1,183 nt of DNA from Naegleria gruberi. Taxonomy: Eukaryota. The notes beneath the pieces were generated by a model. That model saw only the letters and a list, made by a program, of their open reading frames with translations. It did not search any database and was not told the origin of the DNA. Below, one piece after another: positions 92 through 1,183 of this stretch (position 1 is the stretch's first letter; every line of letters starts with the position of its first letter). The stretch is taken from NCBI GenBank assembly GCA_000004985.1, contig GG739516.1; one strand, given 5' to 3'. A program made the position numbers and the translations under genes.

Positions 92-291
92 CTAACAACG
101 CTACGTTCCTCTTGGGAATGCTGAGGATGATGGTAAACCATCAACCTACCAAACAACATCCAAAAACAACTTTCTCTTTGAGAGAGGGGTTTTAGGACAC
201 ACAAGAGGGACACAATGTTGTTTTCATGTTGACAATTTTTTTAATATTTATTTTTAGAATATATTACCGCACCAGCAAGGATCAGTATCGA

Positions 292-316
292 TCTTTTGCT
301 GTTTTTTTTGTTTTTG
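292..316. promoter_or_regulatory. Long oligo(dT) tract on the plus strand (oligo(dA) on minus): TCTTTTGCTGTTTTTTTTGTTTTTG. Poly(dA:dT)-type nucleosome-disfavouring element.
   Basis: Seen in the sequence: 8 T then 5 T, separated by a single G, inside a T-rich 25-mer. In yeast such tracts mark nucleosome-depleted regions at promoters, terminators and ARSs. Its function here is inferred, not shown. Confidence 0.35.
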
Positions 317-393
317 AAATTGATCATTTTCAAAGACCTGTTTTTTGTAAATTGAGGACCTTTGCGATTTTTTCAACAGTCAGTTTGTTTTCA

Positions 394-421
394 TTTTTAA
401 TCGAGGTACCTCGAATCAAAA
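394..421. repeat. Perfect 14-bp palindrome TCGAGGTACCTCGA (401..414, GGTACC core) inside an imperfect ~28-bp inverted repeat TTTTTAA-TCGAGGTACCTCGA-ATCAAAAA. The extension has 2 mismatched pairs.
   Basis: Verified base by base. The 14-bp core is perfect. The extension pairs 399/416, 397/418, 396/419, 395/420 and 394/421, with mismatches at 400/415 and 398/417. Confidence 0.85.
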
Positions 422-575
422 AGAAACACCATCAGAGTTTATACGGGTGGAAGCAAAATTGAGGAGATTGATTAATTTACAGTGTTACAAGTTTATGTTA
501 TCATGGTTTGGAGTTGTAATGAAGTGAAAACGGTTGAAAGTGGACTCGTAATTGATCAAGAGGTTGAGTTGTAGA

Positions 576-587: not shown

Positions 588-699
588 CTGGAACAATTTT
601 CAAGGCAGCTAGATCATTATCTATTAAACAAATTTTTTGGTGGGAAAAAACTGTCAAATGTCGTGCGAGTGTGAAGAAAATAGAAAATATCACAAACAG

Positions 700-767
700 C
701 TAAATCTAATAACACAATTCCAACAAATTATTTAAAAAAGTATTTATTCTAAACTAGCATCATCAAA
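700..767 (-). terminator. 3' UTR and polyadenylation signals of the 768..1007 gene. The minus strand downstream of TAA reads TTTGATGATGCTAGTTTAGAATAAATACTTTTTTAAATAATTTGTTGGAATTG. It has AATAAA (plus 743..748) and a T-rich/TTTTTTAAATAA efficiency-like element.
   Basis: AATAAA positioning-element-like hexamer and UA-rich/T-rich elements lie within about 60 nt of the stop codon on the coding strand, consistent with yeast 3'-end formation signals. The exact poly(A) site cannot be determined from sequence. Confidence 0.4.
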
Positions 768-1007
768 TTATTGAGAAGCTTGATAGATCTTGAAACCCCA
801 CCAGATTGACCAGAACCAACCGATCAAGAAATAGGCCAAGATGAATTGGAGAATACCAACAATAATAGCTGGAGTCTTCTTTTCAGCTTCTTGAGTCAAA
901 ACACCGGCAATGACGGTACCCCAACCTGGGAAGAAAATGTTCAAAATCAAAACGATCAAACCCATAGAGGATTCAACCTTTGGAGTGGAGTTGTTAATCA
1001 TGTCCAT
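768..1007 (-). CDS. Small (79 aa) integral membrane protein with two predicted TM helices (aa ~15-37 = nt 897..965; aa ~47-75 = nt 783..869). N-terminal hydrophilic tail MDMINNSTPKVESS; motifs FFPGWGT and IGWFWSIWWG. Possibly Stum/SPEC3-like or TM2-like, family not confirmed.
   Basis: Complete ORF from ATG (1005..1007 on +) to TAA (768..770). An in-frame TAA lies 13 codons upstream (1044..1046), so this is the first ATG. Context CAACAAGATGG has A at -3. Codons are almost all yeast-preferred (TTG, GGT, GTT, ATT, TCC, ACT, CCA, GCT, AAG, GAA, CAA, TTC, ATC), with no CTG, CGN or AGG codons. Two long hydrophobic segments are separated by a charged loop TQEAEKKTP. The leader is A-rich and G-free, with AATAAA downstream of the stop. 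Confidence 0.78.
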   Translation of the reverse strand: MDMINNSTPKVESSMGLIVLILNIFFPGWGTVIAGVLTQEAEKKTPAIIVGILQFILAYFLIGWFWSIWWGFKIYQASQ

Positions 1008-1090
1008 CTTGTTGTATGAAGTAGTTGTGTTGTTTGTTTTTTTTTAACGCAAAAATTTCTCTTCAACTCGCCGCGTTTTTATGAGCCAAT
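1008..1090 (-). promoter_or_regulatory. 5' leader and core promoter of the 768..1007 gene. The minus strand reads ...TCATAAAAACGCGGCGAGTTGAAGAGAAATTTTTGCGTTAAAAAAAAACAAACAACACAACTACTTCATACAACAAG-ATG. It has a TATA-like CATAAAAA (plus 1076..1083) about 75 bp upstream of the ATG, and an A9 tract with a G-free A/C-rich leader (plus 1008..1047).
   Basis: Read directly from the sequence. G-depleted A-rich leaders and TATA-like elements are typical of strongly expressed yeast genes. The TATA assignment is only a 1-mismatch match to TATAWAWR and the TSS is unknown. Confidence 0.4.
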
Positions 1091-1183
1091 GAAGGTCAAA
1101 GTAGTTGAAAAGTTGGCAAGAGTTCAACTGGATGATAAATGGCGGGAAAAAATCACGCAACTCAAAAATGAACGGCAACAGAA

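Follow-up and report, generated by a model that had tools for sequence, protein, structure and literature searches.

The window, by which we mean the whole 1,183-bp stretch of DNA analyzed here, is AT-rich (36% GC), and the ORF listing of the window places on its minus strand, at 768..1007, a reading frame that runs from an ATG to a TAA and encodes a protein of 79 amino acids, MDMINNSTPKVESSMGLIVLILNIFFPGWGTVIAGVLTQEAEKKTPAIIVGILQFILAYFLIGWFWSIWWGFKIYQASQ. This reading frame is a genuine eukaryotic protein-coding gene. A first-pass annotation of the same DNA had described a two-helix membrane protein of this length, carrying PGWGT and GWFWSIWWG motifs and preceded by an A-rich, G-free leader. 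Its coordinates and features are correct, the strand, which it did not state, is minus, both motifs are present, and the 40 nt that precede the ATG are indeed A-rich, with one G only, at position -1. Table 1 gives the positions of the gene, of the two membrane helices and motifs within it, and of the elements that flank it.

Table 1. The Spec3/Stum-domain gene and its associated features, in window coordinates
Feature	Position	Strand	Basis
CDS of a stand-alone Spec3/Stum-domain protein, 79 aa plus TAA	768..1007	-	ORF listing, Pfam, identical ENA product, N. gruberi relative
TM helix 1, residues 15-37, kink at P27-G28-x-G30; near-invariant N23, I24, P27, G28, G30, T31	897..965	-	Hydropathy, conservation, AlphaFold2
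TM helix 2, residues 47-72; G51, invariant Q54, kink at invariant G63	792..869	-	AlphaFold2, conservation
PGWGT motif, residues 27-31; P, G and G each at least 91% in 74 relatives	915..929	-	Sequence
GWFWSIWWG motif, residues 63-71, Trp-rich, nearly every position conserved	795..821	-	Sequence, conservation
A-rich 5' leader, one G at -1	1008..1047	-	Sequence inspection
AATAAA hexamer, possible poly(A) signal, 20 nt past the stop	743..748	-	Sequence; weak evidence in AT-rich DNA

Position -3 relative to the ATG is A and position +4 is G, the frame is interrupted by a TAA 13 codons upstream, and no further ATG occurs within the 81 nt upstream of the gene start. An N-terminal segment of the form STP+xE..MGLIV is common to the 79-aa protein and to two of its relatives, P0008 and P0011, and this sharing favors the upstream ATG as the start. 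Length in itself is no evidence of a gene in this DNA, because the window also holds a T-rich ORF of 78 aa, at 226..462 on the plus strand, that is as long as the Spec3 gene and shows no homology; the reality of the 79-aa gene follows from its homology and its codon bias. That the 79-aa ORF, too, might be a chance ORF and no gene draws on the same neighbor, which renders length insignificant, but this reading has a probability next to nil and is already refuted by a Pfam match at E = 1.3e-12, by 78% identity to a Naegleria protein, by the existence of hundreds of relatives, and by a codon bias with a tail probability of about 1e-16.

The first-pass annotation had suggested a resemblance to the Stum/SPEC3 family, and a Pfam-A hmmscan bears this out: the protein matches Spec3 (PF15795) at 48.5 bits against a gathering score of 27 (E = 1.3e-12), with residues 7-77 covering profile positions 2-84 of 85, which is nearly the full length of the profile. 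All of the Spec3/Stum signature residues are present, namely N-I-x-x-P-G-x-G-T in helix 1 and G-x-x-Q followed by G-W-x-W-S-I-W-W-G in helix 2, and the Spec3 model is matched by every one of the 74 relatives that we aligned. NCBIfam returned no match for the protein, as is expected because that library is prokaryote-oriented. We consider it practically certain that the gene encodes a stand-alone product consisting of one Spec3/Stum domain and nothing else, membership being defined here by the Pfam HMM rather than by alignment to Drosophila Stum or Strongylocentrotus purpuratus SPEC3. The family and its Pfam model are public already, as is a near-identical Naegleria entry, and the locus is one more member.

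The bare domain raises the question of whether the ORF is complete. Drosophila Stum is a very large protein of which the domain is only the C-terminal part, and although most Spec3 relatives are 76-100 aa long, some reach 150-300 aa and carry the domain at their C-terminal end. The ORF might accordingly represent just the final exon of a larger Stum-like protein whose N-terminal region is extensive, as it is in Drosophila, and the AG dinucleotide directly before the ATG could be read in the same sense. We judge this very improbable, given the in-frame TAA 13 codons upstream, an intervening A-rich segment without a polypyrimidine tract, an opposite-strand ORF that begins 81 bp upstream, and the prevalence of 76-100-aa relatives with an equivalent start, P0008 and P0011 with their conserved N-terminus among them.

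Two other families of small membrane proteins had to be weighed against Spec3. The Pfam hmmscan gave no match of the 79-aa protein to Pmp3 (PF01679) or to TM2 (PF05154), in either case at E <= 10, and across the 74 relatives there were sub-threshold Pmp3 matches in six (best E 5.5e-4) and TM2 matches in four (best E 0.26). When the 74-sequence Spec3 profile was compared by hhalign with the single sequence of YqaE, taken from the annotated E. coli K-12 record, the probability of a relationship was 2%. On these searches of the protein and its relatives we rejected membership in both families. The earlier claim that the protein is not a Pmp3/UPF0057 proteolipid is therefore upheld by the absent Pmp3 match and the YqaE comparison, whereas the looser resemblance to TM2 that had been suggested finds no counterpart in the TM2 searches. 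Automated JGI labels on homologs (DUF485, YqaE/UPF0057, and TM2/YozV) can be read as mislabels of small hairpins. A TM2-domain identity would draw on a loose likeness of motifs and on one homolog auto-labeled "TM2 domain-containing protein YozV" by JGI; set against the missing match and the count of 4 relatives of 74, compared with 74 of 74 for Spec3, it is effectively refuted.

The Pmp3 alternative takes a more subtle form, in which the protein, as a functional analogue or very remote relation of Pmp3/UPF0057, would act on membrane potential or ion leak and not in a sensory or ciliary complex. Yeast Pmp3 and E. coli YqaE are likewise two-helix hairpins, small and abundant, whose helix 1 is broken by Pro/Gly, and the 79-aa protein shares with them its similar size, an aromatic-rich helix 2, and, if the codon usage is a guide, high abundance; the sub-threshold matches in 6 of the 74 relatives and one homolog labeled "YqaE (UPF0057)" by JGI point the same way. 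The best of those matches, however, rises to an E of about 0.04 after correction for 74 tests, the protein itself has neither a Pmp3 match at E <= 10 nor more than 2% hhalign probability against YqaE, the signature residues differ, other residues being conserved in Pmp3/UPF0057, and there is no significant sequence relationship between the two. We regard such an analogy as unlikely, and return to the protein as a Spec3/Stum hairpin.

Kyte-Doolittle hydropathy delimits two hydrophobic stretches, at about residues 15-37 and 47-72, with the hydropathy peaks at 11-34 and 44-69. An AlphaFold2 model built from the 74-sequence alignment (mean pLDDT 92.9, pTM 0.81) resolves them into helices at 13-25, 29-37, 41-60, and 62-78, that is, two membrane helices, each broken once. 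As modeled, the protein is a hairpin of two kinked membrane helices joined by a 9-residue charged loop. Both kinks fall at conserved glycines, in helix 1 at P27-G28-x-G30 and in helix 2 at G63, each helix buries one polar residue (N23 in helix 1, Q54 in helix 2), and helix 2 ends in a Trp-rich belt, G63-W-F-W-S-I-W-W-G71. Among solved structures we found no informative relative of the model.

Conservation across the 74 relatives follows this anatomy. The most constant positions in helix 1 are N23 (91%), I24 (95%), P27 (91%), G28 (92%), G30 (92%), and T31 (88%); those in helix 2 are G51 (92%), Q54 (100%), G63 (100%), W64 (93%), and W66 (99%), followed through the Trp belt by S67 (86%), I68 (93%), W69 (76%), W70 (88%), and G71 (97%). 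The N-terminus, loop, and tail vary among the relatives. A stripe of conserved positions with i, i+3/4 spacing runs along a single face of helix 1 and of the first half of helix 2, and in the segment G63 to G71 conservation extends to essentially every residue.

The first-pass annotation had also called the gene highly codon-optimized, and the counts agree. With codon bias scored against a yeast-type optimal set after the Sharp/Ikemura lists, rather than against a set from the source organism itself, 67 of the 71 degenerate codons in the 79-aa ORF are optimal (Fop 0.94), compared with about half in the neighboring ORFs, where the adjacent in-frame pieces in the same DNA score 0.47-0.57. The preference is nearly absolute for GGT (7/7), TTC (6/6), AAG (4/4), CAA (4/4), CCA (3/3), GAA (3/3), AAC (3/3), and TTG (6/7), and, computed exactly, the tail probability comes to about 1e-22 if base composition is the reference and to about 1e-16 if the codon frequencies of the neighbors are. 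Because this preference for one codon per amino acid is absent from the flanking ORFs, it argues for selection for efficient translation, and it indicates, as far as codon usage can, that the protein would be abundant. The closest relative from the same sample uses 58 optimal codons of 70, with CTC also a major Leu codon, but the bias is not a family-wide property of Spec3/Stum: a distant relative in a 20%-GC genome is without bias, its score of 0.30 being the same as that of its own neighbors.

A word-indexed search found an identical product, 77 aa long and called from the second ATG, on an ENA metagenome contig of 1,197 bp (ERZ929261 k127_59490, here L001). Window positions 697..1183 correspond to L001 1197..711 at 100% identity, and the contig adds 710 bp to the right of the window, giving a composite of 1,893 bp. 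No called gene is on record for the 79-aa form of the product, and an exact 37-mer taken from the left of the window was absent from JGI metagenome contigs. The next best protein is an uncharacterized "predicted protein" of Naegleria gruberi (P0002, 64 aa, Pfam Spec3, no contig on record), which is 78% identical across the domain as a whole and has the PGWGT and GWFWSIWWGFKIYQ segments unchanged; it differs in that its model starts at the equivalent of M15 and ends three residues earlier, and in its loop, which has another sequence and is two residues longer.

An exhaustive HMM search of 1.84 billion representatives of 50%-identity clusters placed the same N. gruberi protein at the top, as the representative of the cluster that contains the window's own protein, and recovered 1,308 representatives at E <= 1e-3, of which 374 reached E <= 1e-10. 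The relatives number more than 1,000 and are diverse, coming mostly from environmental eukaryotes. In a neighbor-joining tree of the domain core the window's protein is sister to that of N. gruberi, and the next branch joins P0008 and P0011 (68-69% identical), the latter on a contig from the same ENA sample as L001. The other named relatives among the matches listed are Moneuplotes (Euplotes) crassus, Hemiselmis rufescens, Rhodomonas abbreviata, and Baffinella frigidus, all of them protists, and no fungal name appears among the matches listed. One distant short relative lies on a 113-kb contig together with histone, Myb, mitochondrial carrier, synaptobrevin, cyclin, PP2C, and HSP90 genes, and this contig is clearly compact and eukaryotic.

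The surroundings of the gene yielded little that could be classified. Bases 1-767, which amount to about 770 bp downstream of the Spec3 gene, contain no ORF with homology, no Rfam family at the gathering threshold, and no tRNA; the sole match at lenient Rfam settings, IS128 at E = 0.82, we attribute to chance. On the other side, a divergent ORF starts 81 bp from the Spec3 ATG (MKVKVVEKLARVQL...), occupying 1089-1183 on the plus strand and continuing on L001 at 805-362 (minus). It consists of three pieces in the same frame separated by a TAG and a TGA, it is without codon bias, and an enumeration of introns gave no convincing GT-AG model; it is either an orphan gene or no gene. The second flanking ORF lies on L001, where its final 87 codons are present. 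Both flanking ORFs lack a Pfam domain, and as a concatenated query they found no homolog even at E <= 10 in 5.8 billion clusters. Orphan neighbors of this kind fit a poorly sampled protist lineage better than they fit the densely sequenced yeasts, with the proviso that their gene models are doubtful owing to the in-frame stops.

Two palindromes also lie in the left part of the window. The first, at 64-91, is a perfect palindrome of 28 bp, TGAAGGTTTCACCT|AGGTGAAACCTTCA, which begins at the TGA that ends the plus-strand frame running in from the left edge (TTNNNNATPSSNAYQPTRNRL, then stop), and is possibly a hairpin at a 3' end or a site bound by protein. The second, at 389-426, is an imperfect 38-nt palindrome (85% complementary) centered on TCGAGGTACCTCGA, in an ORF-poor, T-rich stretch.

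From which kind of organism the gene comes is a separate matter, on which the earlier premise of a yeast or other fungal gene does not hold up. In its favor, the preferred codons (GGT, TTG, CCA, CAA, GAA, AAG, TTC, and AAC) and the A-rich, G-poor leader resemble those of highly expressed Saccharomyces genes, and the GC content of 36% is compatible with it. A yeast-like codon set is not diagnostic of yeast, however; the closest relative from the same sample is similarly biased but uses CTC as well as a major Leu codon. The best relative among the 1.84 billion representatives is from N. gruberi, at 78% identity and as sister in the tree, the other named relatives are from Euplotes and cryptophytes, none of the matches listed carries a fungal name, and flanking ORFs without any homolog would be unusual for densely sequenced yeasts. 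That the gene is a rare fungal member of Spec3/Stum is therefore quite improbable. Its affinity is probably with a Naegleria-related heterolobosean amoeboflagellate, not a yeast, an assignment that draws on one protein of 64-79 aa; affinity with another protist is the less favored possibility, though one to be taken seriously.

Taken together, the best explanation of the locus is a genuine stand-alone Spec3/Stum gene, Naegleria-related, whose product would be an abundant membrane subunit in the form of a kinked hairpin, and to this reading as a whole we assign a probability of roughly 0.6. Both termini of the protein are probably cytosolic and the short loop outside, because the longer members of the family (150-300 aa) carry the domain C-terminally and the consensus tail is Lys-rich. 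Residues 5-8, NNST (984-995, minus strand), form two overlapping N-glycosylation sequons that are not conserved in relatives, and they would be relevant only if the N-terminus were lumenal or exterior, which is the opposite of this topology.

Simple register arithmetic for a hairpin (i + j of about 84, used in place of model coordinates) would have N23 face the kink at G63 and Q54 the kink at G28/G30, and with polar residues and kinks opposed in this manner the N23 and Q54 side chains could clamp the kinked helices into a rigid wedge. The single-face conservation of helix 1 and of the first half of helix 2 would then represent contact within the hairpin, and the conservation of every position in 63-71 suggests an additional conserved contact at the membrane interface, either with other copies of the protein or with a conserved partner. 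We envisage neither an enzyme nor a transporter. The protein might instead be an abundant, oligomerizing structural or accessory subunit of the cell-surface or flagellar membrane, and by analogy a minimal form of the membrane module used by Drosophila Stum in stretch-sensing dendrites and by sea-urchin SPEC3 in ciliogenesis. This mechanism in its entirety, from the rigid wedge through the Trp-rich contact to the surface or flagellar module, is offered as tentative.

The animal members of the family provide the context for such a role. According to the passage of PMC13554239 that cites Desai et al. (2014), Drosophila stum acts in proprioception, in the proprioceptive neurons, and the corresponding passage of PMC4994401 associates sea-urchin Spec3 with ectodermal ciliogenesis (Eldon et al. 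1987). A Spec3-domain gene of C. elegans occurs in a published RNAi screen table. Our literature search found no papers on protist or fungal Spec3, none citing PF15795 or project PRJEB11402, and no expression, localization, or interaction data for any protist homolog; for Spec3/Stum in general it found no molecular function, solved structure, or non-animal work, the Stum and SPEC3 results being the ones restated.

By HMM membership, Drosophila Stum and vertebrate STUM share with the 79-aa protein the domain PF15795, the two-helix membrane hairpin, and the same signature residues. The difference lies in the setting, since in Drosophila the domain is the C-terminal part of a protein of proprioceptive neurons, whereas here it is the bare domain in a unicellular eukaryote. 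Sea-urchin SPEC3, the founder of the Pfam family, belongs to the same domain family and is a longer, metazoan protein. The named protist relatives are all flagellated or ciliated, which by analogy would be compatible with a cilium-related role. A further and more speculative step, which we think rather unlikely as it stands, is that the bare 80-aa Spec3 hairpin is the ancestral Stum/SPEC3 module and serves flagellated and ciliated protists as an abundant, self-associating component of the flagellar or surface membrane. If that were true, a tractable amoeboflagellate such as Naegleria could reveal the molecular role of the domain, for instance that of an accessory or force-coupling subunit in a mechanosensitive complex.

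Conservation of the Spec3/Stum domain extends from protists to humans, and flies require the domain for proprioceptive mechanosensing. At this locus it occurs as a free-standing 79-aa protein of a Naegleria-like microbe, expressed, to judge from codon usage, apparently at a high level. Such a minimal form suits biochemistry and structure determination, and the residues to mutate are N23, P27, G28, G30, Q54, G63, and those of the Trp belt. Taken alone, the locus is a further uncharacterized member of Spec3/Stum that leaves current knowledge unchanged. The main reason for which it had earlier seemed of interest, membership of a fungus in the family, falls away, and what is left is a mild usefulness as the minimal form of an understudied, deeply conserved domain, which will not surprise a specialist.

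Several contigs that carry relatives have features of their own. One is a very AT-rich (20% GC), gene-dense eukaryotic contig of up to 134 kb, recovered from several metagenomes (L004 and L005), which at 10001-10240 encodes a 79-aa Spec3 relative, P0111. This distant protein has Pro in place of the first Gly of PGxG (PPIGT), Phe in place of G51, and Tyr in place of both W64 and W69, and its gene is without codon bias. A second homolog, P0003 (53% identical), is encoded at 3634-3876 on the plus strand of a 4-kb low-coverage contig (L006) whose other genes, overlapping ORFs with Bac_transf and Glycos_transf_2 domains, look bacterial, and the GC content of the Spec3 gene is 49% compared with 35% for the contig; the locus may be an assembly chimera or the result of horizontal transfer, or it may belong to a giant virus or a eukaryote. 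The third, L002, from the same ENA sample as L001, carries the 68%-identical Spec3 gene P0011 at 454-690 on the plus strand, and P0011 is either a paralog or an ortholog from a related species. This gene has a similar A-rich leader, a strong codon bias in which CTC and TTG encode Leu, and an AATAAA-type hexamer in a similar position, and 230 bp downstream of it, on the opposite strand at 921-1037, lies a 5S rRNA gene (96.6 bits).
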